The notes: generated from the letters alone by a model not told the origin. DNA of 64,000 nt from Bacillota bacterium (GCA_012521335.1 JAAYMM010000002.1:53030-117029), one strand, 5' to 3'. Numbered from the stretch's first letter, positions 6,896-63,485 are shown. Program-made: numbers and translations.

Positions 6896-8983
6896 TTGGC
6901 TACGTTAATCATTGTGGAATCACCTGCCAAAGCGAACACCATCAAAGGATTTTTGGGCAGAAATTATACAGTAAAAGCGTCTTTAGGGCATGTGCGGGAT
7001 CTCCCCCGCAGCAAGCTGGGCGTGGATGTGGAGAACAACTTCGAACCCCGCTATATCACCATTCGAGGCAAAGGGCCCGTTTTGCAGGAGCTGCGGGAAG
7101 CGGCCAAGAAGGCAGATCGTGTCCTGCTGGCTACGGACCCTGACCGTGAAGGCGAGGCTATCGCCTGGCATCTAGCCGAGGCTTTGAACATAAAAGAGGA
7201 AAAGTGCCGCATCGATTTTCACGAGATCACCAAAGCCCAAGTACAGCAGTCCGTCAAAGAACCTCGGCCCATTTCCCAATCTTTAGTGGATGCCCAACAG
7301 GCACGGCGGGTTCTGGACCGAATTGTGGGCTACAAGCTGTCGCCGCTGCTCTGGTCCAAAGTGAAGCCGGGACTGAGTGCTGGGCGTGTGCAATCGGTGG
7401 CCGTGAAGCTGATCGTGGATCGAGAGCGGGAAATCGAGGCCTTTGTACCTGAAGAGTACTGGAGCGTCACCGCATTACTGGCCACCAGCCGCGGCGAGCA
7501 GTTCGAGGCGAAACTGCTGAACAGGGCGGGTAAGAAAATCCAACTGACCAATCAGGCAGAAGCTAAGCAGGTGCAGCAGGATGTTACCGGCGCCCCGTGG
7601 GTGGTGGCGGAAGTCAAGACCACCAAGCGCCTGCGCAATCCAGCGGCACCCTTTACCACCAGCACTATGCAGCAGGAGGCCGCACGCAAGCTTGGGTTTT
7701 CGGCAAAAAGGACTATGCGCGTGGCGCAGCAGCTTTATGAAGGTCTGCCCTTGGGCAAGCTGGGCACCCACGGTTTGATCACGTACATGCGTACTGATGC
7801 CACTAGGGTCTCGCCTGAGGCAGTCGCTGAAGCGCGGGAGTACATCAAGGACACCCACGGCGCGGATTATGTGCCGAAGAAACCGAGGCAGTACGCTTCG
7901 AAGAAAGGCGCGCAGCAGGCCCATGAGGCTATCAGACCTACCTCGGTGCTGCGTACACCAGAGGAAGTGAAGCCCTATCTATCACGGGATCAGTATAGAC
8001 TGTACAAGTTGATTTGGGAACGTTTCGTAGCTAGTCAGATGAGTTCGGCGACCTTTGATGCCACCAGTGTAGACATCAAAGTCAGCGATTATCTGTTTAG
8101 GGCCACCGGTTCCCGACTGACCTTCCCGGGCTTTTTGAAGCTCTACGTGGAAGGCAGCGATGAAAACGGGTTAGAAAGCGAACTTGGCGATCGTCTGCTG
8201 CCGGCCCTCGAGGCCGATCAGGTTCTCGATCTGCGCAAGCTTGACCTGCAGCAGCACTTCACCCAGCCCCCGCCTCGTTTCAGCCAAGCCACATTAGTCA
8301 AGACCTTGGAAGAAGAGGGTATCGGCAGGCCCAGCACTTACGCCCCCATTATCGATACGATTCTGAGCCGGGGCTATGTGTACCTTGAAGAGAAACGCTT
8401 TCGCCCCACTGAGCTGGGGATTATTGTTGTGGACCTGCTCTCCGAAAGCTTCCCGCAACTGCTGGATGTGGGGTTTACGGCAGCCCTAGAAACGCAGCTG
8501 GACCAGATCGAAGAGGGATCATTGAGTTGGCAGAGTGTGCTGCAGGAGTTCTACGGACCCTTTGCCCAAGACCTGGAAAAAGCCTATGAGGAACTGGAAC
8601 GCATCACCGTGCAGGATGAAGTAAGTGGTGTGATCTGTGAAAAGTGCGGACGGAACATGGTGTACAAGACCGGAAGATTCGGGCGTTTTCTGGCCTGCCC
8701 AGGCTATCCCGAATGCAAAAACACCAAGCCCATCTTGGATGAGATCGGTGTGGACTGCGCCCTCTGCAAAAGGGAAGGGAGGCCCGAAGGAAAGCTGGTG
8801 CGCAGGCGCACCCGCAACGGACGGCTTTTCTATGGCTGCAGCAATTATCCCGATTGCACTTATACTGCCTGGCAGCAGCCTGTGGCTGAGGCTTGCCCGC
8901 ATTGTGGCCACAACTTGGTGGTGCGCCGCAAAGGGAGCAAGCCGGTCTGCGTGAACAAAGAATGTCCCGGAGGTGAGGGCTAG
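6896..8983 (+). CDS. topA: DNA topoisomerase I
   Basis: Toprim N-terminus 'LIIVESPAKANTI', 'GHVRDLP', active-site Tyr region, C-terminal CxxC zinc ribbons; 695 aa. Confidence 0.95.
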   Translation: MATLIIVESPAKANTIKGFLGRNYTVKASLGHVRDLPRSKLGVDVENNFEPRYITIRGKGPVLQELREAAKKADRVLLATDPDREGEAIAWHLAEALNIKEEKCRIDFHEITKAQVQQSVKEPRPISQSLVDAQQARRVLDRIVGYKLSPLLWSKVKPGLSAGRVQSVAVKLIVDREREIEAFVPEEYWSVTALLATSRGEQFEAKLLNRAGKKIQLTNQAEAKQVQQDVTGAPWVVAEVKTTKRLRNPAAPFTTSTMQQEAARKLGFSAKRTMRVAQQLYEGLPLGKLGTHGLITYMRTDATRVSPEAVAEAREYIKDTHGADYVPKKPRQYASKKGAQQAHEAIRPTSVLRTPEEVKPYLSRDQYRLYKLIWERFVASQMSSATFDATSVDIKVSDYLFRATGSRLTFPGFLKLYVEGSDENGLESELGDRLLPALEADQVLDLRKLDLQQHFTQPPPRFSQATLVKTLEEEGIGRPSTYAPIIDTILSRGYVYLEEKRFRPTELGIIVVDLLSESFPQLLDVGFTAALETQLDQIEEGSLSWQSVLQEFYGPFAQDLEKAYEELERITVQDEVSGVICEKCGRNMVYKTGRFGRFLACPGYPECKNTKPILDEIGVDCALCKREGRPEGKLVRRRTRNGRLFYGCSNYPDCTYTAWQQPVAEACPHCGHNLVVRRKGSKPVCVNKECPGGEG

Positions 8984-10293
8984 TGACCCAGGTGACTGTG
9001 ATCGGGGGCGGCCTCGCCGGCAGTGAAGCTGCCTGGCAGCTAGCCACACGGGGCGTTGCCGTGCGCCTCTATGAAATGCGCCCTCAGGCGATGACCCCAG
9101 CCCATCATACGGCCGACCTGGCCGAACTTGTCTGCTCTAATTCTCTAGGGTCGGTCTTGGAGAGCACCGCCGGTGGGCTCCTCAAGCGTGAGCTGACGTT
9201 GATGGGCTCCCTGATCTTGGAGGCGGCAGAAAAAACCCAGGTGCCCGCGGGCAGTGCCCTAGCTGTGGACAGGCAGCTCTTTGCCCAGGAAGTAACCCGC
9301 CGCCTGGAAGAGCATCCTTTGGTGGAGATCATCCGGGAAGAGTGCCGGTCCATACCCCCGGGAATTGTAGTGATTGCCACCGGACCGCTGACCAGCCCTG
9401 CCTTGAGCAGTGCGCTGCAGCAGCTCACCAACGCGGAAAACCTGCACTTCTTCGATGCTGCGGCCCCTATCGTGTTGGGTGAGACCGTCCGCTACGATCT
9501 GGGTTTTTGGGGTGCCCGCTACGGTAAGGGCAGTCCCGATTATTTCAACTGCCCCATGTCCAAAGAGGAGTATCTGGCTTTCTGGCGAGCCCTCGTCACT
9601 GCTGAGATGGCGCCCCTCCACGAGCACGAAAAAGATGAAGACGGTTTTCCCGTGTTTGAAGGCTGCCTGCCAGTGGAAGTGATCGCCAAGCGCGGGGAAG
9701 ATGCCTTGCGCTACGGGCCTTTCCGTCCGGTGGGGCTCTCGGATGCGGAAGGACGCAAGCCCTATGCCGTACTGCAGCTGCGGCGGGAGAATACAGAAGC
9801 GACGCTGTTCAACTTAGTGGGCTGTCAGACCCGCTTGAAATGGGGCGAACAGCAGCGCGTGTTCAGGATGATCCCCGCTCTGCAGGAGGCGGAGTTTGTA
9901 CGCTACGGCGTGATGCACCGCAACACATTTATCAACTCACCAAGAGTACTCAAGGCCAGTTTTCAGTGCCGCGAGGAAGGCCGGCTGTTTCTGGCAGGGC
10001 AGCTCACCGGCGTGGAGGGCTATGTGGAAAGCACGGCCTCGGGCCTGTTGGCAGGGGTAAACGCAGCCCGGCTGGCCCAAGGCCAGGAGCCTTTGGTTCT
10101 GCCACGGGAAACCATGCTGGGGAGCCTCGCTCACTACATTGCCACCGCGGATCCCGAGCACTTCCAACCCATGAACGCGAACTTCGGGATTCTGCCGCCC
10201 TTGGATCCTCCAGTGCGGAGCAAGAAAGAACGGAAGCTGGCCTATACGGAGCGAGCGCTGCGTGCTTTGGCGGATTTCTGGCCCAGAGTGTAG
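8983..10293 (+). CDS. trmFO: Methylenetetrahydrofolate-tRNA-(uracil54-C5)-methyltransferase TrmFO (Gid)
   Basis: 'VTVIGGGLAGSEAAWQLA' FAD-binding N-terminus; 436 aa; conserved topA-gid-xerC order. Confidence 0.9.
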   Translation: MTQVTVIGGGLAGSEAAWQLATRGVAVRLYEMRPQAMTPAHHTADLAELVCSNSLGSVLESTAGGLLKRELTLMGSLILEAAEKTQVPAGSALAVDRQLFAQEVTRRLEEHPLVEIIREECRSIPPGIVVIATGPLTSPALSSALQQLTNAENLHFFDAAAPIVLGETVRYDLGFWGARYGKGSPDYFNCPMSKEEYLAFWRALVTAEMAPLHEHEKDEDGFPVFEGCLPVEVIAKRGEDALRYGPFRPVGLSDAEGRKPYAVLQLRRENTEATLFNLVGCQTRLKWGEQQRVFRMIPALQEAEFVRYGVMHRNTFINSPRVLKASFQCREEGRLFLAGQLTGVEGYVESTASGLLAGVNAARLAQGQEPLVLPRETMLGSLAHYIATADPEHFQPMNANFGILPPLDPPVRSKKERKLAYTERALRALADFWPRV

Positions 10294-19591: not shown

Positions 19592-20143
19592 TTGGGCAGA
19601 TGGGTTTTGGCCATAACGTTTCTTCTAATTTCGCTCATTGTAGCATTCGGCATACTAGTCGCGACAGGCGTTATTGACGGACCTGCCCTTTTTTGGCGCT
19701 GGGGGATGCGCATCGGTTGGCTCCAGCCGCACCTGGAAACCTATGCCCACGGTAGGGATGCCGAAGGGTGGATTGCACAGCAGGAAACGGAACTGCGCGC
19801 CAAGCTCACTGAAGTGGAGCGCAGAGAGGCAGATCTCCAGGCGGAACTGGGCAAGCTGGAACAGCGGGCCCAGCAGCTAGATAAACGCGAGAGCGAGCTC
19901 GCCGCCTGGGAAGCCCGGCTCCAGCAGGAGCAGGAGCAAAGGCGTAATGTGCAGAGCCTCGCCCAAATCTACAGCGGAATGGATGCCGCCGACGCGGCTC
20001 GGATTCTCCAGGCTTTGGACCAAGATCTGCTTTTGGAGGTCCTTTTGGAGTTAGATACCTTCCAGGCCGCAGAGATCATGGCGCTTTTGCCAACTAACCT
20101 GGCTGCAGCCCTGAGCAAACAGATGGGCCAAGCCAGTGATTAG
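19592..20143 (+). CDS. Flagellar operon protein with N-terminal TM, coiled coil and MgtE_N-like C-terminus (YlxF/FlbB/MotE-like)
   Basis: TTG start after GGGAGG; membrane anchor, long coiled coil, C-terminal 'AARILQALDQDLLLEVLLELD...AEIMALLP' MgtE-N-like helices; position between fliJ and fliK as ylxF in Bacillus. Confidence 0.6.
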   Translation: MGRWVLAITFLLISLIVAFGILVATGVIDGPALFWRWGMRIGWLQPHLETYAHGRDAEGWIAQQETELRAKLTEVERREADLQAELGKLEQRAQQLDKRESELAAWEARLQQEQEQRRNVQSLAQIYSGMDAADAARILQALDQDLLLEVLLELDTFQAAEIMALLPTNLAAALSKQMGQASD

Positions 20144-20199
20144 CTTGGAGTCTTGTTTGGAAAGGAGGTGAGAATATCGATTTCATAGCGATTCTCAAT

Positions 20200-22212
20200 A
20201 TGCCGCTCCAGGGTTCGGAGCCCAGCGGCGATCTGCCCGTTCGCCACGGGCCCAAACGGGAGGGAAGATTCGAGGAAGTGCTGGAAACGGTGCTCGACTC
20301 AGAGCAACTGGCACAGCACCACCAAGAAGATGCCCCCAGGGCCAAAAAGCGGGAACGTGAGCAGACCCATGCGAACCTACCCTGGAACGGAGCGCTGCCG
20401 CTTCACCCAACGAATCTCGGCCTGTCCAGGAGTGAACCCGGTACGGACCCAGCACTTGTGACAGAGACGGCTGGCAGCCCCGCCCCGGCAGCCATGGCGT
20501 TGGAGACAGCGCTGGAGGTGCTTGGGGAAGAGGCAACGATGGTCCTGGAGGCAGAGTTCGTACCTCTGGACATGGAGAGTGCCCTCGAGGGGGAAGGCCC
20601 AGAAGGCGCGCTGCCTAGTGAGAAGCTGCTCACCCCAGACCCAAGTGTTGACACTACCCATCCCTACACAGGCCAGCGCAGTGCAGATGCGGCCCAGGAT
20701 GGGAAGCATGTGAACGCTGCTGAGTTACCGGAGTCTGTAAGGCACACTATGGCGCAGGTAAGGTCAGGTGGACAGCCTCAAGAGGCGCCTGCAGTGCCTA
20801 ACCTGGAACACCCTGCTGAAACTGCTCCCGCTGGGCACACAGAACCTGTGGCTGCTAAGGGCTTGGGGTCGTCAGGACAGGATATGCCCGCGGCCAACGA
20901 AGCAGGTTCGGCCCGAAAGGAAGCAAACTACGCACCTACGGTCCCACAGCCAGTTCCGGAAGGGCAAACTATGGCGGAACATCAAGCAGCGGAATGGGAA
21001 GTTGATCCTGAACTAGGCGTCGGAGGAAGGGCCACCACTGCCCAACGCCCAGGCATGAGACCAGCAGACCAAGGGCAAACGCACTGGGAAGTGGAGTATA
21101 GTCCTGAACCGGCAGTTGGGGAAGCCGGCATACCAGTCCAGCCAGAGGCTGCAGTAGGAGAACCGGTTAAGAGTGGAGGGGAGTTCCCACACCATGCCGA
21201 AGTTCCCGCCGCTGGCTTTGCAGAAGAAGGCCGTGAAGTCTTCCGTCGGGCCGCGGAAGCTCAGCCAGCCGAGGAGCAGGTAGCTGAGCAAGTTCACTCC
21301 GAGCCCGCAGCGGAGCAGGGACCTGCACGAGCTGAAGTGCCAGGGGAGAACGGCTCAGCAGTCAAGTGGCCGGATCCGGTGCAGCACCGAGTTCCAACCG
21401 GCGAGAGCATCGAACCAGCTGGATATGGGAAGGCAGCCAAGCAGGAAGGAACAGCCCCGACTCAATCCTTAGGGATGGATCCCGTTGTTCCCGAAAAATC
21501 TGGGATTCGGCCTGAGCCCTTGTTGGTAGGCCGCGACACAGCAACAGAAGACAGCCAGGCGGCGCAAGACGAGGAATCCAGCGAAGCAAAGGACACTGTG
21601 CCGACCACGCAGCCTTCCGAGGCGAAGGAAGTGCACAAAACCGAGGCGAAGCCGCAGCGGCATGCAGAACAGAAGCCCAAGACGGCTGCCCGCCAAGCTG
21701 AAGCCATTGGGCAGGCCCAGGAGCCGCCGTTAACGCTGGAGCACTCGCCTGAAACAGTCGAGACACCAGTCCCGCAGCGTCAGGTGCTGGATCTCAGGCA
21801 GCCTGAGCACGCGTTCGCCAAGCTTGTGCGCACCATGGAGTCCCTCGTTACCGAAGAGCGCACTGAAGTGCGCATAGAGCTGAAACCAGAGCATCTGGGT
21901 GAGATGCGCATCAAGCTGTCCATGGAACGGGGCATTATGGTAGCCGAGTTCCTGGTGCAGGATCGCAGGGTTCAGGAGCTGATCTCGGCCCAGCTTCCCC
22001 AGCTCTATGCAGCTCTACAGGAGCAGGGAACCGTGATGGGCGATGTATCAATTAACGTCGGACTTGGACAGGACAAGCAGGCGCAGCAGGAACAGCCCCA
22101 TGCCCGGACGGTAGGGCGAGGCGGACAGGGCAAGACTGACACGAGGGAAGTAAAGACCGCGGCCCGCTATACTAGTCGCAGTGTGTGGTACCAGGTAGAT
22201 GTGCGTGTGTAA
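20200..22212 (+). CDS. fliK: Flagellar hook-length control protein FliK (large, Pro/Glu/Ala-rich)
   Basis: 670 aa low-complexity central region; C-terminal Flg_hook domain 'EVRIELKPEHLGEMRIKLSMERGIMVAEFLVQDRRVQELISAQLPQL'; start uncertain (first ATG is 31 nt from the nearest RBS). Confidence 0.75.
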   Translation: MPLQGSEPSGDLPVRHGPKREGRFEEVLETVLDSEQLAQHHQEDAPRAKKREREQTHANLPWNGALPLHPTNLGLSRSEPGTDPALVTETAGSPAPAAMALETALEVLGEEATMVLEAEFVPLDMESALEGEGPEGALPSEKLLTPDPSVDTTHPYTGQRSADAAQDGKHVNAAELPESVRHTMAQVRSGGQPQEAPAVPNLEHPAETAPAGHTEPVAAKGLGSSGQDMPAANEAGSARKEANYAPTVPQPVPEGQTMAEHQAAEWEVDPELGVGGRATTAQRPGMRPADQGQTHWEVEYSPEPAVGEAGIPVQPEAAVGEPVKSGGEFPHHAEVPAAGFAEEGREVFRRAAEAQPAEEQVAEQVHSEPAAEQGPARAEVPGENGSAVKWPDPVQHRVPTGESIEPAGYGKAAKQEGTAPTQSLGMDPVVPEKSGIRPEPLLVGRDTATEDSQAAQDEESSEAKDTVPTTQPSEAKEVHKTEAKPQRHAEQKPKTAARQAEAIGQAQEPPLTLEHSPETVETPVPQRQVLDLRQPEHAFAKLVRTMESLVTEERTEVRIELKPEHLGEMRIKLSMERGIMVAEFLVQDRRVQELISAQLPQLYAALQEQGTVMGDVSINVGLGQDKQAQQEQPHARTVGRGGQGKTDTREVKTAARYTSRSVWYQVDVRV

Positions 22213-39403: not shown

Positions 39404-39961
39404 ATGATTGGTGGAATTTTGGACGACGGAAAAGCCAGGATGGAAGAGGTTATTGCCCGCACCAAAAAAGCTTTTGCCAGCGTACGCACGGGGCGCGCCA
39501 ATCCCGCACTTCTCGATCGCATTGTTGTTTCCTATTACGGGACCCCTACACCTCTGCCTCAGATGGCCAGTGTGTCGGTTCCCGAGCCCAGGCTGCTGGT
39601 GATCACTCCGTGGGATAAAAACTCCATCAAGGACATCGAAAAGGCCATTCTGACCTCTGACTTAGGGCTAGTACCCTCCAACGATGGTTCGGTGATCCGT
39701 CTGGCCATCCCGCCCTTGACAGAGGAGCGCCGCAAGGAATTAGTGCGCCTGGTTCGCAAAGATGCCGAGGACTTCCGCGTTGCGGTGCGCAATATCAGGC
39801 GTGACTTGAACGAGGCCGCCAAGAAGAAGGAGAAAGACGGCGACATCTCCGAAGACGATTTGAGGCGGGCGCAGGACGAGATTCAGAAATTGACCGATCG
39901 CTACATTGAGCAGATCGATGAACTGCTGAAAGCCAAAGAAAAGGAGATCATGGAAGTTTGA
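39404..39961 (+). CDS. frr: Ribosome recycling factor
   Basis: 185 aa; '[24 protein letters not shown]' signature. Confidence 0.95.
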
Positions 39962-40200
39962 GCAGACAGCAGGAGTTCTCAGAATGGGAGTTTCTGATCG
40001 GCTACCCTCTAGAACAGGCCCAGGAAATCCTCCTGGAAGAAGGGGTGGCTTTTGAGGTGATCTGGACCGCGGCCCCCAAGTATCAGGGGCATGTGCCCTC
40101 TCGAGATGAAGACTCTGCTGAGGACACCCGTGTTGTGGCCGTGCGCAGAGGCTCGCCAGTGGGCTTGGTCTGCGCGGTCCAAGATTGGAATGTGGACTAG
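39958..40200 (+). CDS. Hypothetical small protein between frr and uppS
   Basis: 80 aa ORF, TTG start overlapping the frr stop; no family recognised. Confidence 0.35.
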
Positions 40201-41746: not shown

Positions 41747-42733
41747 TTGCTACCGCCTGTTCTAACGGCAGCCGCCTTGTTCTGCGCGGCCCTAATCCTG
41801 CTGAAACTAGCGTTTCCATATGTGGCGCCGTTTCTGCTGGGTCTGAGCCTGGCGCTGTTTTTGGACGGGCCCGTCACATATCTGGAGCAACGCGGCTGGC
41901 CGCGTCCTGCTACATCTCTGGCCCTGGTAACTGCGTGCTTCCTGGCCCTGCCTGGCGTGATCGGGTTGTTTTTCGTAAGATTGTGGCAGGAGATGCAGGG
42001 GCTGTTGACCTTGGGGCTGGTGGGTCAGCTGGCCGGGGAGTTTTCCGAGCATGTTTTGAGCTTATTGGAAAAGATCCCTTTCGCTTCCCAATGGGATTTC
42101 GCGGGGCTTTTTGCGCTGCCCCAGGTGCTGCTGAGCTGGGCGTCGGCTATTCCCGATCTTTTTTTGATCTGGACCCTGACTGCCCTCAGCGCCTATTTTT
42201 TCCTGCGCGACAAACGCAAGCTCTTCCGTTGGGCTGCCGAGCAGCTGCCGCAGAAAAGGGCGATCAGCGTACGCCAGCTGTATGTAGATACAGTCGGGGC
42301 TCTTTGGCACCTGGTGCGCGTGCAGCTGGTCTTGGTCCTTTTGTCCACGGGAGCTAGTATGGTCTTTTTCTCCTTGCTCAAGCTGCCCTTTCCGCTGCTC
42401 TCCGGTTTTCTCGTGGGCTTTTTTGATCTCTGCCCCGTTGTGGGCCCGGGTCTCGTTTACCTGGCCTTGGCCCTGATCCAACTATCTTTAGGGAATTCCC
42501 AGATAGCTCTGGCCTTGGGCCTGGGATATCTGGTAGTATTACTGTTAAGGCAGTGGGGTGAACCTCACTTGGTTGGCGAACGTCTGGGGCTCCACCCGCT
42601 GGCGGCCCTGATCGGGGTCTATGTGGGCTTTCGTATTTGGGGCCCTTTGGGGGCCGTTACAGGTCCGATCCTGTTGGTTATTTTCCAAGCTTATTTACGC
42701 CAAACACGGGCGCATGTTTGTAGAAAGGGTTAA
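41747..42733 (+). CDS. AI-2E family (UPF0118/YtvI-like) integral membrane transporter
   Basis: 328 aa, about 8 TM segments; conserved 'FDLCPVVGPGLVYLALALI' region typical of the PerM/AI-2E family. Confidence 0.6.
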   Translation: MLPPVLTAAALFCAALILLKLAFPYVAPFLLGLSLALFLDGPVTYLEQRGWPRPATSLALVTACFLALPGVIGLFFVRLWQEMQGLLTLGLVGQLAGEFSEHVLSLLEKIPFASQWDFAGLFALPQVLLSWASAIPDLFLIWTLTALSAYFFLRDKRKLFRWAAEQLPQKRAISVRQLYVDTVGALWHLVRVQLVLVLLSTGASMVFFSLLKLPFPLLSGFLVGFFDLCPVVGPGLVYLALALIQLSLGNSQIALALGLGYLVVLLLRQWGEPHLVGERLGLHPLAALIGVYVGFRIWGPLGAVTGPILLVIFQAYLRQTRAHVCRKG

Positions 42734-45982: not shown

Positions 45983-47698
45983 ATGCTCATGTCGCAGTTA
46001 TATGCGCCAACATTGCGGGAGACGCCCTCAGAAGCTGAACTGGTGAGTCATCAGCTCATGCTCCGCGCTGGCCTCATGCGCAGGTCCGCTTCGGGCATGT
46101 ACACGTTTCTGCCCCTGGGGCTGAGGGTCATCCGCAAAGTGGAGCAGATTATCCGGGAAGAGATGAATGCCATTATGGGGCAGGAAGTGCTCATGCCCAT
46201 AGTCCAACCGGCCGAAATCTGGCAGGAATCTGGACGCTGGGATGAGTACGGTGATGAAATGTTCCGCCTCAAAGATCGCAACGGCCGCCAGTTCTGCCTG
46301 GGGCCCACCCATGAAGAGCTGATCACCGCTTTGGTGCGCTCGGAAGTGCGTTCTTACCGGCAGCTGCCCCTGCGGCTGTACCAGATCCAGAACAAGTACC
46401 GCGATGAGATCCGGCCCCGTTTTGGCCTGATGCGCGGCCGGGAGTTCATCATGAAGGACATGTACTCCTTTGACAAAGACGAAGAAGGCCTAGATGCCAG
46501 TTATTGGGCAGCCTACCATGCCTACGAAAGGATCTTCAAGCGCTGCGGAGTGGAAGCCAGACCTGTGGAAGCAGATTCTGGAGCCATTGGCGGTGATGTG
46601 ACCCACGAGTTCATGGTGTTGGCTGAAGCCGGGGAAGATAGTGTTCTGCACTGTCTGAAATGCGGCTACGCCGCCAATGTGGAACGGGCCGAAGGTGTAG
46701 ACCGAAAACTCCCAGCACCAAACGGCGAAAAGCAGCCGCTCCAAGAAGTGGCTACACCGCAGGTCAGCACCATCGCCCAGGTCTGCGCGTTTTTGAACAA
46801 AGAACCGCAGGACTGCATCAAAACCTTAATCTATCTGGCGGATGGGCGCCCTGTGGCCGCCCTTGTGCGCGGGGATCATAACCTGAATGAAATCAAACTG
46901 CGCAAGTTCCTCAACTGCGATGTGCTGGAACTTGCTGATGAGGATACCATCGTCCGCATCACCGGAGCACCGGTGGGGTTTGCCGGCCCCGTGGGCCTGG
47001 ATGTGCCCCTGTACGCAGATTATGCTGTGAAATACATACTGAACGCCGTGGTAGGGGCCAACAAACAGGATGCGCACCTGATCAACGCCAACCTGGATCG
47101 AGATTTTCAGGTCACGGAGTTTGCCGATCTGCGAGAGGTCCAGCCGGGCGATCCCTGCCCGCGCTGCGGAGATGCCTTAGAAGGCGCCCGCGGCATTGAG
47201 GTGGGGCAGGTCTTCAAGCTGGGTACCAAGTACTCTAAAGCCATGGGGGCCACTTTCCTTCAGGAGAACGGCGTGGAGACGCCCTTTGTAATGGGCTGCT
47301 ACGGTATTGGCGTAGGCCGGACGGTTGCTGCCGTGATTGAGAAAAACCACGATGCTGACGGCATCATCTGGCCCATCAGCATTGCACCTTACCACGTGAT
47401 CATCGTTCCCGTAAGCGTCAAGGATCCCGCCCAGACGGAGGCAGCCTACAAGCTCTATCAGGAGCTGCAGGCCGCTGGCATTGAGGTTGTGCTTGATGAC
47501 CGAGATGAACGCCCAGGTGTAAAGTTTAAAGACGCAGACCTCATCGGGTTTCCCATCAGGGTAACCATTGGGCCTAAGTCGTTGGAGAAAGGTGAAATGG
47601 AGTTAGTGATCCGGCGGACTAAAGAGGTGAGAAGCTTGCCGGTAGGCAGCATTTTAGCTGCAATACGGGAGATCCTGGAGGGCGGAGAGCAAGAGTGA
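45983..47698 (+). CDS. proS: Proline--tRNA ligase (bacterial type with editing domain)
   Basis: 571 aa; class II motifs and INS editing domain; '[11 protein letters not shown]' N-terminus. Confidence 0.95.
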
Positions 47699-48321
47699 AA
47701 GTAGCCGCGATTGTCCCCGCTTACAATGAGGAGCAGACCATCGGACCAGTTATAGAAGCTCTGCTGGAATGCCAGCTGCTTTCCGAGATCATTGTGGTCA
47801 GCGATGGCTCCGTTGATCGTACTGCAGAAGTAGCTCGTCAGTATCCAGTGAAAGTGGTTGAACTCGCCGAAAACATTGGCAAAGGCGGAGCGATGAAAGC
47901 GGGGGCCAACCACACCAACTGTGAGGTACTGCTCTTTGTGGATGCCGACCTAGTAGGCCTCCACAAAGAGCATATCGAAGCCCTTCTAGAACCGGTGCTT
48001 TCAGGGCGGACGGCCATGAGCGTCGGTGTCTTCTCGGAAGGGAGGCGCAGCACCGACCTGGCCCAGAAACTGGCGCCTTCTCTCTCGGGACAGAGGGCGG
48101 TGCGCAAAGACCTCTTCGATCAAGTGCCTAGACTGGAGAGCAGCGGCTACGGAGTGGAAGTGGCCCTGACCCAATTTGCTGAAAAGCATAATGTGGACAT
48201 CGTGCGCGTGCCCCTGCCTACCGTATCGCAGATTATGAAAGAGGAAAAGCGGGGCTTGGTTAAGGGGTTGTGCGCCAGGATGAAGATGTACTGGGAAATA
48301 GTGCGCTCCCTCCGCATCTAA
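47695..48321 (+). CDS. Family 2 glycosyltransferase (polyprenyl-phosphate sugar transferase-like)
   Basis: '[21 protein letters not shown]...[10 protein letters not shown]...LFVDADL' GT-A DxD fold; 208 aa; GTG start overlaps the proS stop. Confidence 0.7.
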
Positions 48322-48387: not shown

Positions 48388-48400
48388 GGGAGGTGGCTTG

Positions 48401-51400
48401 GTGACTGCCTTTTACATAGAACCGGAGAACAAGTTATTCTTGGCTTCCTTAAGCTCCCACCCCCTGGTACAGGAACTGGAGATTGAACGCATCGGGGTGG
48501 ACCCCCAAACGAGGACGTGGGTCTTCGTGCTCCAAGGGCCGCCCCGAGGTGAACAGGCGCTCTGGAATGAGTTAACTCAAGCAGTGAAGAACCTGCATCC
48601 GGAGGTGGCCGAAGTTCGCTTTGAATGGACAAGCACTGCGGCATCCGGTCAGTCCGAGCCAGAGAGCGAGTCGGAACAGGCCTATCTGGAAAACGCCATC
48701 AGGCAGGTGAATGGGATGCCGATCAACTACAGTTCGGCACCCACCAATGGGAACGGCCGCACCAACGGCAATGGCCGTTCTAACGGGCGAAGCCGAAGTC
48801 TCCTGAGAGACTCTATTCCCGGAGATCCCGTGCCCATTGCCCAGCTCCAGGAAGGTGAAGACAACGTCCTGATTGCCGGCGAAGTTGTGGCCTTTGAATC
48901 TCGCGTTACCCGCACGGGCAAGATCCTGGTCATGTTCGATGTCTACGATGGAACTGACACCCTCGGCTGCAAGGTGTTCCTGGACGAAGCACAGGATCTG
49001 GGCATCAAAAAGGGACAGTGGGTCAAGGTCCGGGGTAATCTGCAATTCCAGCCCTTTGACAACGAACTGAGCCTCATGGTGCAGGGACTAGCTCCCATGG
49101 AGGCGCCGCACTGCCTGGAGGATACTGCGGAACAGAAGCGGGTAGAGCTGCACCTGCACACGAAAATGAGTGGGCTCGATGGTACGGTGGATGTGGAGCT
49201 GCTCATGAAGTTGGCCGCCTCCCTGGGTCACGATGCGGTGGCCATCACCGACCACGGCGTGGTGCAGGCTTTCCCTGAGGCCCATCGGGCAGCCAAAAAG
49301 CACGGCATCAAGGTGCTTTACGGAGTTGAGGGCTACCTGGTGGATGATCCCGAGAGCAAAACGCGGCCCTACCATATTGTGCTGCTGGCTAAGAACCAAG
49401 TGGGGCTCAAAAACCTGTACCGTTTGGTTTCCTATGCCCATCTTCGCCATTTTTACCGGGTACCCCGCATACCCCGCTCTTTGCTGCAGCAGTACCGCGA
49501 GGGCCTGATTGTGGGATCTGCCTGCGAGGCCGGCGAGGTTTTCCAGGCCGTGCTCCACCAGCGCCCTAACGTTGTAGAAGTGGCCAGCTTCTACGACTAC
49601 TTAGAGATCCAACCGCTGGCCAATAACGAGTTCCTCATCGGCACCAGCAACGTGCGATCCAGAGATGACCTCGTTCGCATTAACAAGCAGATTGTGGCGC
49701 TGGGTGAGCGTTTGGATAAGCCTGTTGTAGCCACGGGCGACGTGCATTTCCTCCGGCCCGAGGATGCGTTTGTGCGTACCATCCTCCTCGCGGGTAAGGG
49801 TATGGGTGATGTGGAGCACCCTGCACCCCTGTATTACCGCACCACTGCCGAGATGCTCCAGGAGTTTGCCTACCTCAGCGCAGAGAAGGCCTATGAGGTT
49901 GTGGTGAAAAACCCCCGCTGCATCGCGGCTGAAATCGAACAGTTGAGCCCGGTTCCTTCGGGTTTCTATCCGCCGCACCTCCCCGAGGCAGACAAGGAAC
50001 TGGAGAGAATGACCTATGCCAAGGCCCGGGAGATCTACGGAGATCCCCTGCCGGACATTGTCCAGGCGCGTTTGGAGCGGGAATTGAAAGCCATCATCGA
50101 CAACGGCTACGCGTCCTTGTACATTATTGCTCATAAACTGGTGAAAAAGTCCCTGGACGATGGCTACCTGGTCGGGTCCAGGGGATCGGTGGGATCTTCT
50201 TTGGTGGCCACCATGTGTGCGATTACAGAGGTGAACCCTCTGCCGCCGCACTATGTGTGCCCTAACTGCCACTGGACAGAATTCTTCACCGCCGGGGAGG
50301 TGGGCTCAGGGGTAGATCTGCCTGACCGCAGCTGCCCGAAGTGCGGCACAGTAGTCCGCAAGCTGGGCTTTGACATTCCCTTTGAAGTGTTTATGGGCTT
50401 CCACGGCGATAAGGTGCCAGATATCGATCTTAACTTCAGCGGAGAATACCAGGCTCAGATCCACAGCTACACCGAGGAACTGTTCGGCACCGATTACGTG
50501 TTCCGAGCCGGCACCATCGGTACCTTGGCAGAAAAGACGGCCTATGGCTTTATCATGAAGTACTTGGAACAGACCAACGAGACCAGGCGCAGCGCGGAAA
50601 TCAACCGTCTGGTTTCCAAACTGGCGGGCGTGCGCCGCACCACCGGCCAGCACCCTGGGGGCATGGTGGTGATTCCTAAAGGGAAGGAAGTATTCGACTT
50701 CACTCCCATCCAATATCCCGCCAACGATCCCAGCAGCGGGACGATTACCACCCATTTCGAGTACCATGCCCTGGATGACTGCCTGGTGAAGCTGGACATC
50801 TTAGGACATGATGATCCCACCATGCTGCGCATGCTGGAAGATCTCACAGGGGTCAACGTGGCTGATATCCCCCTCAATGATCCCCAGACCATGGCCATTT
50901 TTTCGTCTACGGAGAGCCTGGGAGTGACCCCGGAGCAGATCGGCACGCCAGTAGGCACTTTAGGTGTACCCGAGTTTGGCACGCGCTTCGTCCGCCAGAT
51001 GCTGGAGGACACCTTACCTAAGACTTTCAGCGACCTGGTGCGCATCAGCGGCTTGTCCCACGGAACCAACGTATGGACCAGCAACGCGGAAGAGCTGATC
51101 AAGGCTGGGATCACGGATATCAGCGGAGTTATTGCCACCAGAGATGACATCATGATCTACCTCATGCTCCGGGGCGTGGAGGCTCGGGATGCTTTCCGAA
51201 TCATGGAACAGGTGCGCAAGGGAAAGGGGCTCACAGAAGCGGATGAGGCCCTGCTCAAGCAGTTTGATGTCCCCCAGTGGTACATCGATTCCTGCAACAA
51301 GATCAGCTACATGTTCCCTAAAGCTCATGCCGTGGCCTATGTGATGATGGCCTTCCGCATCGCCTACTTCAAGGTCCACTATCCCCTGGCCTTCTATGCA

Positions 51401-51838
51401 GCCTTGTTCTCGCTGCAGGCGGGTGATTTCGATGCCCAACTGGTGAAGGGTGGAGAGCAGGCTGTCCGGGCAGAGTTGGCCAGAATCACCAACAAGGCCT
51501 ACGAGGCCACTCCCAAGGAGCGGAGCCTGGTAACCTTGTTGGAGATCATCCTGGAAGCCATGGTGCGTGGGGTGCGTTTCCTGCCCGTCGATCTCTACAA
51601 GTCGGCGGCACAGGTGTTTAGGATCGAGGGCGAGGCCCTGCGTCCACCGTTTGCTTCCCTGCAGGGTGTTGGGGCCAGCGCGGCCAACAGCATTGTGCAG
51701 GCCCGGGAAGAAGGGGAGTTCATCTCCGTTGAGGATCTACGGCAGAGGGCCGGTGTCACCAAGGCGGTGATCGAAGCTCTGCGCCTGCACGGGTGTCTCG
51801 AGGGCCTGCCGGAAACGAATCAATTGACACTTTTCTAG
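48401..51838 (+). CDS. polC: DNA polymerase III PolC-type alpha subunit, apparently lacking the 3'-5' exonuclease domain
   Basis: OB domain, PHP domain ('VELHLHTKMS...DHGVVQAFPEA...KKHGIKVLYGVEGYLVDD'), PolC zinc-finger module ('YVCPNCHW...CPKCG'), palm/fingers, C-terminal tandem HhH; only 1146 aa; PHP goes straight from 'LVDD' to 'RPYHIVLLAKN' with no exonuclease insert. Confidence 0.9.
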   Translation: MTAFYIEPENKLFLASLSSHPLVQELEIERIGVDPQTRTWVFVLQGPPRGEQALWNELTQAVKNLHPEVAEVRFEWTSTAASGQSEPESESEQAYLENAIRQVNGMPINYSSAPTNGNGRTNGNGRSNGRSRSLLRDSIPGDPVPIAQLQEGEDNVLIAGEVVAFESRVTRTGKILVMFDVYDGTDTLGCKVFLDEAQDLGIKKGQWVKVRGNLQFQPFDNELSLMVQGLAPMEAPHCLEDTAEQKRVELHLHTKMSGLDGTVDVELLMKLAASLGHDAVAITDHGVVQAFPEAHRAAKKHGIKVLYGVEGYLVDDPESKTRPYHIVLLAKNQVGLKNLYRLVSYAHLRHFYRVPRIPRSLLQQYREGLIVGSACEAGEVFQAVLHQRPNVVEVASFYDYLEIQPLANNEFLIGTSNVRSRDDLVRINKQIVALGERLDKPVVATGDVHFLRPEDAFVRTILLAGKGMGDVEHPAPLYYRTTAEMLQEFAYLSAEKAYEVVVKNPRCIAAEIEQLSPVPSGFYPPHLPEADKELERMTYAKAREIYGDPLPDIVQARLERELKAIIDNGYASLYIIAHKLVKKSLDDGYLVGSRGSVGSSLVATMCAITEVNPLPPHYVCPNCHWTEFFTAGEVGSGVDLPDRSCPKCGTVVRKLGFDIPFEVFMGFHGDKVPDIDLNFSGEYQAQIHSYTEELFGTDYVFRAGTIGTLAEKTAYGFIMKYLEQTNETRRSAEINRLVSKLAGVRRTTGQHPGGMVVIPKGKEVFDFTPIQYPANDPSSGTITTHFEYHALDDCLVKLDILGHDDPTMLRMLEDLTGVNVADIPLNDPQTMAIFSSTESLGVTPEQIGTPVGTLGVPEFGTRFVRQMLEDTLPKTFSDLVRISGLSHGTNVWTSNAEELIKAGITDISGVIATRDDIMIYLMLRGVEARDAFRIMEQVRKGKGLTEADEALLKQFDVPQWYIDSCNKISYMFPKAHAVAYVMMAFRIAYFKVHYPLAFYAALFSLQAGDFDAQLVKGGEQAVRAELARITNKAYEATPKERSLVTLLEIILEAMVRGVRFLPVDLYKSAAQVFRIEGEALRPPFASLQGVGASAANSIVQAREEGEFISVEDLRQRAGVTKAVIEALRLHGCLEGLPETNQLTLF

Positions 51839-51906: not shown

Positions 51907-51953
51907 GACGTATGGGTGCAGAAAGCGGGCATAATGTGGAAAAGAAGGGGGCG

Positions 51954-52424
51954 ATGGGCGCCGTGAGTCGCGTACATATCGAGAAGCTGGTCACAGCCTG
52001 GACTGAAGAAATCGTTGAAGGAACAGAACTGGAATTGGTTGATGTGGAGTATGTGAAAGAACCCAGCGGCTGGATTCTCCGAGTGTTCATCGATAAGCCC
52101 GCTGGAGTCGACCTGGAAGACTGCCGCCAGGTGAGTGAAGCTCTGGACCAGAGACTGGACGCAGAAGACCCCATTCCAGGACCTTATCTGCTGGAAGTGT
52201 CTTCTCCCGGGTTGGAGCGCCCCTTGAAAAAAAGGTCTGATTATGAGCGCTTCGCCGGACGCAGGGTGGAGATCCGTACCTACGGGGCCATCCACGGCCG
52301 TAAGCGCTTTGAAGCCACCTTGCAGGGACTTCAGGGCGACAACGTTGTACTAGAATGGGAAGGGGAGACCATAGAAATTCCCCTAGAGCTGATTTCCAAG
52401 GCCAATTTGGTTCTGGAGCTCTAA
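51954..52424 (+). CDS. rimP: Ribosome maturation factor RimP
   Basis: 'GTELELVDVEYVKEPSGWILRVFIDK' signature; start trimmed to ATG 51954. Confidence 0.85.
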   Translation: MGAVSRVHIEKLVTAWTEEIVEGTELELVDVEYVKEPSGWILRVFIDKPAGVDLEDCRQVSEALDQRLDAEDPIPGPYLLEVSSPGLERPLKKRSDYERFAGRRVEIRTYGAIHGRKRFEATLQGLQGDNVVLEWEGETIEIPLELISKANLVLEL

Positions 52425-52442
52425 AACGGGAGGCCAACAGGG

Positions 52443-53909
52443 ATGAATTTGGAATTAATTGGTGCATTGACTGAACTGGAAAAGGAGCGGGGCATCTCCA
52501 AGGAGCTGCTGCTGGATGCCATTGAAACCGCGATCGTCTCAGCCTACAAAAAGAACTATGGAGCCAGCTCATCGGCCAGCGTACGAGTGGAGTTGAACCA
52601 GCACACTGGTGAGATTCACGTCTATTCTCGCCGCGTCGTGGTTGATGAGGTGGAGGACGAGACCCTGGAGATTTCCCTGGAGGAAGCGCGTGACCTGGAT
52701 CCCAACTACGAATTGGGAGATGTGGTGGAGCGGGAAGTAACCCCTGCAGAATTCGGCCGCATCGCCGCTCAGACTGCGAAACAGGTGGTTATCCAGAAGA
52801 TTAGGGAAGCGGAACGCTCCATCGTGTACGACGTATACTCCAACCGGGAGGGTGATGTGGTTACTGGCACCGTACAGCGGGCCGATCAGCGCCAGGTCTT
52901 GGTTGACTTAGGCGACGTGGAGGCAGTGCTGCCGGCCAGCGAACAGATCCCCGGCGAAGTGTACAGTCCCCACGCGAAAATGCGTTTCTACATCAACGAA
53001 GTACGCCAGACCAGTAAAGGTCCCCAGATTTTCCTTTCCAGAACTCATCCCGGCCTTTTGCGGGCCCTTTTTGAACTGGAAGTGCCGGAGATCCAGAGTG
53101 GAGAAGTGGAGATCAAAGCGGTGGCCAGGGAAGCCGGCAACCGCTCCAAGATCGCGGTGTACAGCCGCGACCCCAACGTCGATCCCGTGGGTGCCTGCGT
53201 GGGTGCGCGGGGCAGCCGAGTTCAGTCGGTAGTGGCCGAACTGGGCAACGAGCGCATTGATGTGGTGCAGTGGGAAAAGGATGTGGGCGAGTTTGTGAAG
53301 AACGCGCTCAGCCCTGCCAAGGTGCTCTTTGTGGTCACGGACGAAGAGGAAAAGGTAGCCCATACCGTGGTTCCCGATGATCAGCTGTCTCTGGCCATTG
53401 GCAAAGAGGGGCAAAATGCCCGCCTGGCGGCGCGCCTCACCGGCTGGAGAATTGATATCAAGAGCGAAACGCAAGCTGCCGAGCTGGGACTGGAACCCCA
53501 GCCGGTAGTGGAGTTCGAAGACGAGCTAGAACTAGACCTGGACGAACTGGTGGAAGAACCAGTTGTGGAGCCGGAAGAAGAGGTTGAACTGCAAGTGGCT
53601 GTAGAAGCTGAGGCGGAAGTCCAGGATGAGGAAGCGACAGAGCAGACTGTCCGCGAGGAGGCGCAGCCAGAACCATCTGAACAAGAGCCCAAAGCTCCCG
53701 CCATCAGCGTTGAAGACCTGGCCAGCCTGACCAACGTGACCAAGCGTAAGAGCTGGCAGGAACGCTTCGGCAGCATCGAAGTGGCCCCTGCGCCCGCCGC
53801 TCCGCAAGAAAAGCAGGAAACAGGCAAACCGAAAAAGAAGAAAGAAAGAGTCATCACTGACTTGTCGCAGCTGGAATCCATCACTTTCAAGTTTGACGAA
53901 GAGAAGTAG
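52443..53909 (+). CDS. nusA: Transcription termination/antitermination factor NusA, with long acidic C-terminal extension
   Basis: NusA N-terminal domain, S1 and two KH domains; ~120 aa E/P-rich tail. Confidence 0.9.
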   Translation: MNLELIGALTELEKERGISKELLLDAIETAIVSAYKKNYGASSSASVRVELNQHTGEIHVYSRRVVVDEVEDETLEISLEEARDLDPNYELGDVVEREVTPAEFGRIAAQTAKQVVIQKIREAERSIVYDVYSNREGDVVTGTVQRADQRQVLVDLGDVEAVLPASEQIPGEVYSPHAKMRFYINEVRQTSKGPQIFLSRTHPGLLRALFELEVPEIQSGEVEIKAVAREAGNRSKIAVYSRDPNVDPVGACVGARGSRVQSVVAELGNERIDVVQWEKDVGEFVKNALSPAKVLFVVTDEEEKVAHTVVPDDQLSLAIGKEGQNARLAARLTGWRIDIKSETQAAELGLEPQPVVEFEDELELDLDELVEEPVVEPEEEVELQVAVEAEAEVQDEEATEQTVREEAQPEPSEQEPKAPAISVEDLASLTNVTKRKSWQERFGSIEVAPAPAAPQEKQETGKPKKKKERVITDLSQLESITFKFDEEK

Positions 53910-62470: not shown

Positions 62471-62501
62471 TTTTGTTAACACGGAGAAAAGGGGTATGTG
62501 C

Positions 62502-63485
62502 ATGGCGGTTCTGGCTGTCTACCCGCAGGGGAAAACCCTGCACTTTGGGGTGGGAGCGGTGGATGCTCCCGAGGCTGCCACATTCACTCTTGCATCCTGC
62601 ACAGATGCAGCTATTGTCGCAGAGCAGCTGTTGGCCTGGCTGGAGGCAGCCGGATTTTCCGGGGATCAGCTCGAGTTTATTGTCACCAGCGGCCACCTTA
62701 CTGAAGGCCCCAGCGGCATCTACCGCTGGACCCAGTCTGCGCAGTCGGCCGAGCCCTGGGCAGGCGAGCTGTGTACTGTGCTCTCAGAGTATCTCTCCTG
62801 TCCCGTTTACCTCATCGACCCTGCCAGCAGCGCAGAATGTCATCGGCACGCCCTGGTCACCGGTACGCCGGCCATCCAGCGTCCTTACTTTGCCGACTAC
62901 TTTATCTTTAAGTATCTAGCCCGCGAGGAAGCACTCAGGCGTGGTCTGAAGCAAAGGGAAGGGCGCTTCATTGTTGCCCATCTCGATACTGTAAACCAAC
63001 TGGGCGCGGTGGTGGGCACCAGGGTGGTGGACTGCCTGACCAGTGCCGATGAGGGGCCCTTTGCCCTTTACCACAGCGGAGGACTGCCCTTCGATGAAAT
63101 CTTAAGGATCTGCGACTCTGCTCCTCAGCGGGAACAGGCGCTGCAGGCTCTGACAGAAAACGGGGGCCTAAGGGGCTATTTGGGCCTGGAGAACATAGCC
63201 GACTTCTACAGTCAGCGGGACGAGCAGTCCGAGCTAATCAGGCAGGCTCTCGTGTACCAGATTGCCAAGGAAATAGGTGCCTTAGCCGCAGCTCTCCAAG
63301 GCCAGGTAGATGCCATTATCTGCGCGGGCGAGTTGGCCAGGTTCGAGCCGCTGATAGCCGAGCTCACTGCACGAGTTGGTTTTGTTGCTCCTCTGGTAGC
63401 AGTCCCCGGACAGCAGGGAGTCTCTGCTCTGTTGGCGGGGGCAAGGCGGGTCTGGGAAAAGGAACCCATCATGAACTTAAGCTGA
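62502..63485 (+). CDS. Butyrate kinase-like (ASKHA superfamily) protein with degenerate catalytic motifs
   Basis: Collinear with butyrate kinase (e.g. 'IVAHL...GAVVGTRVVD', 'LVYQIAKEIGALAAALQGQVDAIICAG'), but PHOSPHATE-1 'NPGSTSTK' is replaced by 'YPQGKTLH', 'HMGGG' by 'HLDTV', 'TGGIA' by 'AGELA'. Confidence 0.6.
   Translation: MAVLAVYPQGKTLHFGVGAVDAPEAATFTLASCTDAAIVAEQLLAWLEAAGFSGDQLEFIVTSGHLTEGPSGIYRWTQSAQSAEPWAGELCTVLSEYLSCPVYLIDPASSAECHRHALVTGTPAIQRPYFADYFIFKYLAREEALRRGLKQREGRFIVAHLDTVNQLGAVVGTRVVDCLTSADEGPFALYHSGGLPFDEILRICDSAPQREQALQALTENGGLRGYLGLENIADFYSQRDEQSELIRQALVYQIAKEIGALAAALQGQVDAIICAGELARFEPLIAELTARVGFVAPLVAVPGQQGVSALLAGARRVWEKEPIMNLS

Follow-up and report, generated by a model that had tools for sequence, protein, structure and literature searches.

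The window analysed here, a stretch of DNA of 64,000 nucleotides, carries a polC gene on the plus strand at 48398..51838. A GGAGG at 48389-48393 lies upstream of two candidate start codons, TTG 48398 and GTG 48401, which give proteins of 1146 and 1145 amino acids, respectively; the spacing of the GTG from the GGAGG is the better and more usual one. No exact match to the window PolC was found in the assembly index, where the start codon was probably called differently. The open reading frame 48398-51838 scored 1516.7 bits with the NCBIfam PolC equivalog NF001688 (cut-off 873) and 1414.5 bits with the PolC equivalog TIGR01405 (cut-off 1043). The NF001688 alignment fell into two stretches, the best of which covered residues 321-1146 against profile positions 611-1444 of 1445. 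In the NCBIfam profile search, the protein stayed far below the cut-offs of the DnaE models.

The neighbouring genes are encoded on the same strand. Upstream of polC, proS (45983..47698) is followed by a family-2 glycosyltransferase gene (47695..48321; PF00535, E=1.9e-25), and both keep this order in the loci L001-L003. The glycosyltransferase is context only and no part of the replicase. Downstream, rimP and nusA occupy 51912..53909, as assigned by RimP_N and RimP C-terminal domains and by NusA domains in L001. The complete order is rpsB-tsf-pyrH-frr-uppS-cdsA-(AI-2E transporter)-dxr-rseP-ispG-proS-(GT2)-polC, continued from polC by rimP-nusA-ylxR-L7Ae-infB-rbfA-nrnA-truB-ribF-rpsO-pnp. It includes proS-polC-rimP-nusA-infB, the chromosomal position expected for the PolC group. 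This order corresponds to the B. subtilis arrangement, and the window gene is therefore the orthologous housekeeping polC and no additional copy. Both GC and GC3 of polC match those of the neighbouring genes, and no second C-family polymerase was found within the 64-kb window.

Scans of the 64-kb window for tRNA genes and Rfam families were empty. Further upstream of the rpsB-pnp block, a flagellar operon and the genes topA-trmFO-xerC-hslVU were observed, with trmFO intact at 8983-10293.

Domain architecture and predicted structure

An AlphaFold2 model of the window PolC was built with 36 homologues (mean pLDDT 84.6, pTM 0.70). All domain coordinates given below refer to the plus strand. The model begins with a confident small alpha/beta domain, the N-terminal subdomain NI (residues 1-79; 48398..48634), with a pLDDT of ~88-90 for residues 10-79. 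By hhalign, residues 4-106 matched positions 4-113 of the N-terminal region of canonical PolC, which has 248 aa (probability 95%, E=2.8e-8), and no counterpart of the remainder, the NII subdomain, was detected. As the match is confined to positions 4-113 of 248, NI is kept and NII is missing, in agreement with the shortened N-terminus described in the earlier note on this DNA. NI is followed by a disordered, low-complexity and NGNGR-rich linker (residues 80-150; 48635..48847), which contains NGNGRTNGNGRSNGRSRS and is modelled with a pLDDT below 50 for residues 80-132.

The OB domain (residues 154-233; 48857..49096) was recognized by PF01336 at residues 157-230 (E=3.5e-8), and the beta strands of the model span residues 154-233. 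The PHP segment with its nine metal ligands (49145..49747; PF02811, E=1.9e-37) starts at about residue 250 in the model. The polymerase core of palm, thumb and fingers extends over residues 534-946 (49997..51235; PF07733, E=3.7e-59, and PF17657, E=1.6e-25). It includes the PolC zinc-finger cysteines C621, C624, C646 and C649 (50258..50344), which are invariant in the clade alignment and coincide with weak Zn-ribbon Pfam matches at residues 619-656. The catalytic aspartates D675 and D677 (PDIDLNF; 50420..50428) and the third one, D800 (50795-50797), are likewise invariant in the clade alignments; by homology, this triad corresponds to D401/D403/D555 of E. coli. The (HhH)2 domain covers residues 1058-1139 (51569..51814; PF14579 (HHH_6), E=5.9e-16), and the protein ends with the beta-clamp-binding motif QLTLF (51821..51835). 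In this motif Q1142, L1145 and F1146 are invariant, and C-terminal ends of the Q[LIM]xLF type predominate among 121 aligned sequences.

The architecture of the PolC group is thus complete in the window protein, with the OB domain N-terminal of PHP, Pol3, (HhH)2, zinc finger, aspartate triad and clamp motif. Two typical PolC features are absent, the DEDD insertion in PHP and the NII subdomain. The modules other than these had been described as intact and in frame, and this was borne out by the Pfam matches to OB, PHP, DNA_pol3_alpha, fingers and HHH_6 as well as by the invariant zinc finger and catalytic aspartates. In a Foldseek comparison, the model matched G. kaustophilus PolC (PDB 3f2b) with a TM score of 0.93 and an rmsd of 3.3 A over 1012 columns. 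The entry 3f2b is an engineered delta-Exo construct, whose exonuclease had been deleted for crystallization.

The exonuclease junction

At the position at which canonical PolC carries a DEDD exonuclease insertion of ~200 aa, the window PolC has a junction loop of 14 aa (residues 312-325, GYLVDDPESKTRPY; 49331..49372, plus strand). The junction reads GVEGYLVDD-PESKT-RPYHIVLLAKN in frame, exactly as quoted in the earlier note, and the DNA at 49328-49375 encodes E-G-Y-L-V-D-D-P-E-S-K-T-R-P-Y-H. In the model, the short junction lies between strands 305-315 and 325-331 and is predicted with confidence (block pLDDT 85-88).

A canonical relative of 1447 aa (P0108) served for comparison. In a MAFFT alignment, 213 aa separate the PHP ligands equivalent to E311 and H326 in P0108, compared to the 14 aa of the window PolC, and this insert includes the Exo I-III motifs (MIVDIETTG, HNASFDFGFL and HHRANDDA). 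A Pfam search of the 48398-51838 translation gave no match to PF00929 (RNase_T) at E<=1. The same family was detected in P0108 at E=8e-37, so the negative result for the window PolC is not due to poor sensitivity.

Searches by tblastn in all six frames of the 64-kb window, with the Exo domain of P0108 and with E. coli DnaQ as queries, returned only chance matches, with best E-values of 0.3 to 2. Hence, no frameshifted relic of the exonuclease is present in the window. The claim that this PolC is devoid of the DEDD insertion was therefore upheld.

Homologues and taxonomic range

A search of 5.8 billion proteins revealed more than 100 homologue clusters at 54-87% identity. The clustered proteins are ~1110-1220 aa long, none contains PF00929, and the named ones come from Limnochordia, Limnochordales or Firmicutes MAGs. 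A junction of 12-14 aa was found in 119 of the 121 aligned clade sequences, which were drawn from JGI, ENA, NCBI and Logan assemblies. Of the named genomes, a Limnochordia bacterium MAG gave the best match (83% identity over the full length). Another homologue (P0004, 84% identity) is indexed in 74 assembly-collection blocks and, at the places listed, is flanked by the same genes. Active site, zinc finger and clamp motif of the polymerase are intact, as is the PHP fold, and the clade as a whole has a fixed architecture. The window PolC is a natural, intact Exo-less enzyme of an uncultured Limnochordia bacterium.

A genome scan revealed further loci in which an Exo-less junction of 13-33 aa is combined with the PHP signature HHDHEHCDH. 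These belong to Veillonella, Dialister, Selenomonadaceae and Acidaminococcales, and to Syntrophomonadaceae, Faecalibacterium, Acutalibacteraceae and Oscillospiraceae; the Exo-less architecture was seen in additional taxa as well. A neighbour-joining tree, which is rough and carries no support values, shows the Exo-less PolCs scattered (18 Fitch changes) and the Limnochordia clade as a single Exo-less group with the Exo-containing P0108 as sister. This scattering, together with the Exo-containing sister, suggests recurrent and independent losses, and that the exonuclease was lost in the Limnochordia clade independently of the other Exo-less lineages.

The PHP metal site

The nine PHP metal ligands of the window PolC are H252, H254, D261, H286, E311, H326, C376, D448 and H450 (HHDHEHCDH), and they are kept in 120/120 homologues. 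HHDHEH[C/H]DH is the signature by which PHP proofreaders are classed as "active" (PMC12926913). The nine residues bind three zinc ions in M. tuberculosis DnaE1, and proofreading by this enzyme depends on them (PMC5636811). G. kaustophilus PolC, in which one PHP ligand is changed, has no PHP exonuclease activity, and the loop into which the DEDD domain of PolC is inserted lies at the edge of the PHP active site (PMC5636811). The exchange C669Y in C. thermocellum PolC confers a ~30-fold mutator phenotype (bioRxiv 10.1101/2021.07.30.454558). C669 is the ligand equivalent to C376 of the window PolC.

Among the named genomes, HHDHEHCDH was found in 30/30 Exo-less loci, whereas 25 of the 51 Exo-containing loci, those of Bacilli including B. 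subtilis, carry HHDHEHCNH. We further analyzed 156 diverse PolCs with a full core, made up of 50%-identity cluster representatives and a sample of the Limnochordia clade. The motif was intact in 41/45 Exo-less and 66/111 Exo-containing proteins (Fisher p=6e-5, kinship ignored); three of the four Exo-less exceptions are fragments. With the cluster representatives only, the intact motif was counted in 24/28 Exo-less and 65/110 Exo-containing proteins (p=0.008, kinship again ignored). Taken without correction for phylogeny, all these counts agree with a complementary distribution, with loss of the DEDD domain only where the PHP domain could do the proofreading.

Discussion

Textbook PolC carries a built-in DnaQ-type proofreader. 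The explanation that we propose for its absence is that the gene is a housekeeping polC whose product is a minimal natural form of the enzyme, composed of NI, linker, OB, PHP, Pol3, (HhH)2 and clamp motif. An ancestor of the clade would have lost the DnaQ-like DEDD exonuclease from the PHP loop, and also the N-terminal subdomain NII. The complete trinuclear PHP site (HHDHEHCDH) would perform 3'-5' proofreading in cis, and the DEDD domain would have been redundant beside it and hence losable. We hold this explanation as a whole to be rather probable.

Its central step, that the PHP domain of the window PolC proofreads in cis, is favoured at a probability of about 0.6 over a trans-acting DnaQ and over a PolC that does not proofread. 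It is the likeliest reading because all nine ligands are invariant in the clade and in the 30 Exo-less loci, in contrast to the D-to-N exchange in Bacilli. Many Exo-containing clostridial PolCs have the intact motif as well, and its conservation is therefore no proof that PHP is the sole proofreader. A further point against this reading is the 14-aa loop beside the PHP site, which is shorter than the loops of known PHP proofreaders.

A PolC without any proofreading, of lower fidelity or with a specialized role, appears unlikely. Here, a co-resident DnaE1 with an active PHP domain would do the bulk or the accurate part of the synthesis, or mismatch repair would secure fidelity. A survey by Timinskas et al. 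(2014, NAR 42:1393; PMC3919608) lends some weight to this division of labour, as it places all Exo-less PolCs in genomes that also encode DnaE1 and asks whether DnaE1 is the main replicase. However, the window gene occupies the conserved housekeeping polC position, its product keeps the catalytic triad, the zinc finger and the clamp motif and is strongly conserved across the clade, and an invariant PHP metal site would be unexpected if it had no function.

Slightly less probable still is that a DnaQ-like DEDD exonuclease with a gene of its own associates with PolC or with the clamp and corrects errors in trans, in the way in which epsilon edits for E. coli DnaE. No DnaQ-like sequence was found within the 64-kb window, nor within ~6-10 kb of polC in 30 Exo-less loci or in the fragment L011; the same flank probe detected the exonuclease domain in 51/51 Exo-containing loci. 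Strict conservation of the nine PHP ligands would not be needed under a trans arrangement. The PHP sites of those E. coli-type alpha subunits that depend on epsilon are degenerate (PMC3919608). On the other side, bacteria commonly encode standalone DnaQ homologues, on average more than three per proteome (PMC12926913), and mycobacteria are described as using a non-canonical DnaQ besides PHP. Since most bacteria have standalone DEDD homologues, their presence could not discriminate between the models.

That the exonuclease-coding segment went missing through a collapse of the assembly or by recent deletion is hardly conceivable, given the intact frame, the junction shared by at least 119 homologue clusters with identities as low as 54% and drawn from independent assemblies, the 74 indexed blocks of P0004 alone, the lack of an exonuclease relic in any frame of the window, the native base composition and the confident predicted fold that matches the delta-Exo crystal construct.

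The structural part of the earlier note's interpretation, a natural Exo-less PolC and no pseudogene or assembly product, thus stands. Its functional part, which offered a DnaQ in trans or low fidelity, omitted the likeliest answer, a PHP domain with all nine ligands. The novelty that it implied is not retained either, for PolCs without the Exo insertion had already been described (Timinskas et al., 2014).

Proofreading by PHP in cis invites a broader proposal. The DEDD domain was apparently lost repeatedly and, among full-length proteins and one outlier aside, only in combination with a complete PHP site, from which we propose that PHP is the primary or ancestral proofreader. Limnochordia may accordingly be pictured as replicating with a minimal PolC (NI-OB-PHP-Pol3-HhH2) whose sole proofreader would be PHP, with PHP primary or ancestral in PolCs of the clostridial type and the DnaQ insertion an addition that they can do without. 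This more general statement is tentative, and we would place it somewhat short of even odds.

Natural Exo-less PolCs imply that an intact PHP site allows the enzyme to do without the DEDD domain, a point that genome surveys have already brought into the literature. In this respect, the Exo-less PolC of Limnochordia raises no new question; it adds one class to the list, and it is a compact and well-conserved candidate for testing PHP proofreading. If PHP is indeed the sole proofreader, the clade would offer a clean natural system for the first demonstration of PHP proofreading in a PolC. Common gut genera (Veillonella, Dialister and Faecalibacterium) have Exo-less PolCs as well, a point to bear in mind in the development of PolC-targeting antibiotics.

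Comparison with known systems

A literature search on Limnochordia replication proteins yielded nothing specific, and the closest points of reference are Exo-less PolCs of other classes, canonical PolCs and PHP-proofreading DnaE enzymes. The DnaQ-like DEDD insertion in PHP is the hallmark of the typical PolC architecture, which accounts for 86% of PolCs. According to Timinskas et al. (2014; PMC3919608), PolCs without the Exo insertion amount to 6%, and the PolC group, as phylogenetically defined there, includes these variants. They are reported only from Clostridia and Negativicutes, apart from a single additional copy in Thermotogae, and are always paired with DnaE1, not DnaE3. The same source lists the architecture NTD-OB-PHP-Pol3-HHH2 in its Table S2 and describes the PHP site of PolC as strongly conserved.

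Like this variant, the window PolC lacks the DEDD insertion in PHP and has a conserved PHP metal site and a C-terminal clamp motif. Unlike it, its host belongs to the class Limnochordia, which the accessible part of that paper does not name. The Limnochordia host is a taxonomic extension of Exo-less PolC and no contradiction. Whereas most other Exo-less PolCs have ~210-260 aa before the OB domain, the Limnochordia clade has ~145-156 aa and no NII. The Exo-less phenomenon itself is thus already known, and what is specific to this lineage is Limnochordia as a class and the additional loss of NII.

With the canonical PolCs of B. subtilis, G. kaustophilus and E. faecium (PDB 3f2b and 9qpc), the window PolC shares domain order, zinc finger, catalytic aspartates, clamp motif and genomic position. 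It is 55% identical to G. kaustophilus PolC over residues 149-1146, and the TM score to 3f2b was given above. It differs by the absence of the ~200-aa DnaQ-like exonuclease and of NII, and in this the natural enzyme resembles the engineered delta-N, delta-Exo crystallization construct. In the PHP site, D448 of the window PolC stands against an asparagine in the PolCs of Bacilli, and the G. kaustophilus enzyme has no PHP exonuclease activity (PMC5636811).

M. tuberculosis DnaE1 and Thermus Pol III alpha have the identical nine-residue metal signature and no integral DEDD domain, as does the window PolC, a candidate PHP proofreader. In contrast to both, the window enzyme is a member of the PolC group and not a DnaE1, and its OB domain is N-terminal. 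The loop beside the PHP site comprises 14 aa in the window PolC compared to 29 aa in the M. tuberculosis, 18 aa in the Taq and 9 aa in the inactive E. coli enzyme; in M. tuberculosis and Taq, these loops line a groove for single-stranded DNA that is continuous with the PHP active site (PMC5636811).

Genes Around polC in the Window

A family-2 glycosyltransferase of 208 aa (47695–48321, + strand) lies between proS and polC, its ORF overlapping the proS stop by 4 nt. The same position is kept in three related Limnochordia contigs (L001–L003); the gene is not known to belong to the proS-polC arrangement of B. subtilis. Further upstream, the uppS-cdsA-dxr-rseP block is classical except that an AI-2E family transporter gene (41747–42733, +) interrupts it between cdsA and dxr, and the related contigs also carry this gene of the cdsA-dxr interval. 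Between frr and uppS, a small ORF of 80 aa (39958–40200, +) gave no Pfam match. Because a 73-aa ORF, likewise without Pfam matches, is found at the equivalent place in L001–L003, the 80-aa ORF is probably a genuine, conserved small gene.

A large operon of flagellar and chemotaxis type (about 13700–36300, +) is followed directly 3' by rpsB-tsf. FlgC, FliF, FliI, FlgE, FlhA, and a FliA/SigD-type sigma factor were verified by Pfam as its members; for FliE, FliG, MotA/B, FliP/Q/R, FlhB, and FlhF, the assignment was made solely by visual inspection. The flagellar region includes a 670-aa ORF (20200–22212), which falls in an interval of high AT skew (0.23) at 20001–22000. Downstream of pnp, the sole Pfam match of a 329-aa ORF (62496–63485, +) was a weak one to the acetokinase family (E = 4e-4), which at 19.6 bits stayed below the cut-off of 22. 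Scans of positions 1–64000 detected neither tRNA genes nor any Rfam family at threshold, despite the numerous genes for ribosomal proteins and translation factors in the window.

PolC Variants Outside the Window

Two firmicute-type polC loci (L006 and L014) were located on contigs assigned to MAGs named Ignavibacteriales and Bacteroidota, and probably represent binning contamination of these MAGs.

The homologue P0081 (1330 aa) was placed within the Limnochordia clade. An 84-aa low-complexity insert rich in A, P, G, and D occupies its exact exonuclease insertion site, and no PF00929 match was found in the protein. This insert could be a degenerated exonuclease relic or a secondarily expanded loop.

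The PolC-like protein P0230 (1178 aa), a cluster representative, also lacks the exonuclease insertion, with an 11-aa loop at the site, and its PHP site is not intact, reading HRSLENSDQ at the nine ligand positions. P0230 therefore has no recognisable proofreader. It may be the counterpart of the extra Thermotogae PolC copy (OB-PHP-Pol3-HHH2) that Timinskas et al. (PMC3919608) include in their Table S2.

In the locus scan, all 25 PolCs from Bacilli (25/25, among L028–L082) read HHDHEHCNH, with N instead of D as the eighth PHP ligand, whereas D was retained by all clostridial-type and Exo-less PolCs. The D/N difference is a clean lineage marker separating Bacilli from clostridial-type and Exo-less PolCs. 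The N in Bacilli PolCs fits the reported inactivity of the PHP domain of G. kaustophilus PolC (PMC5636811).
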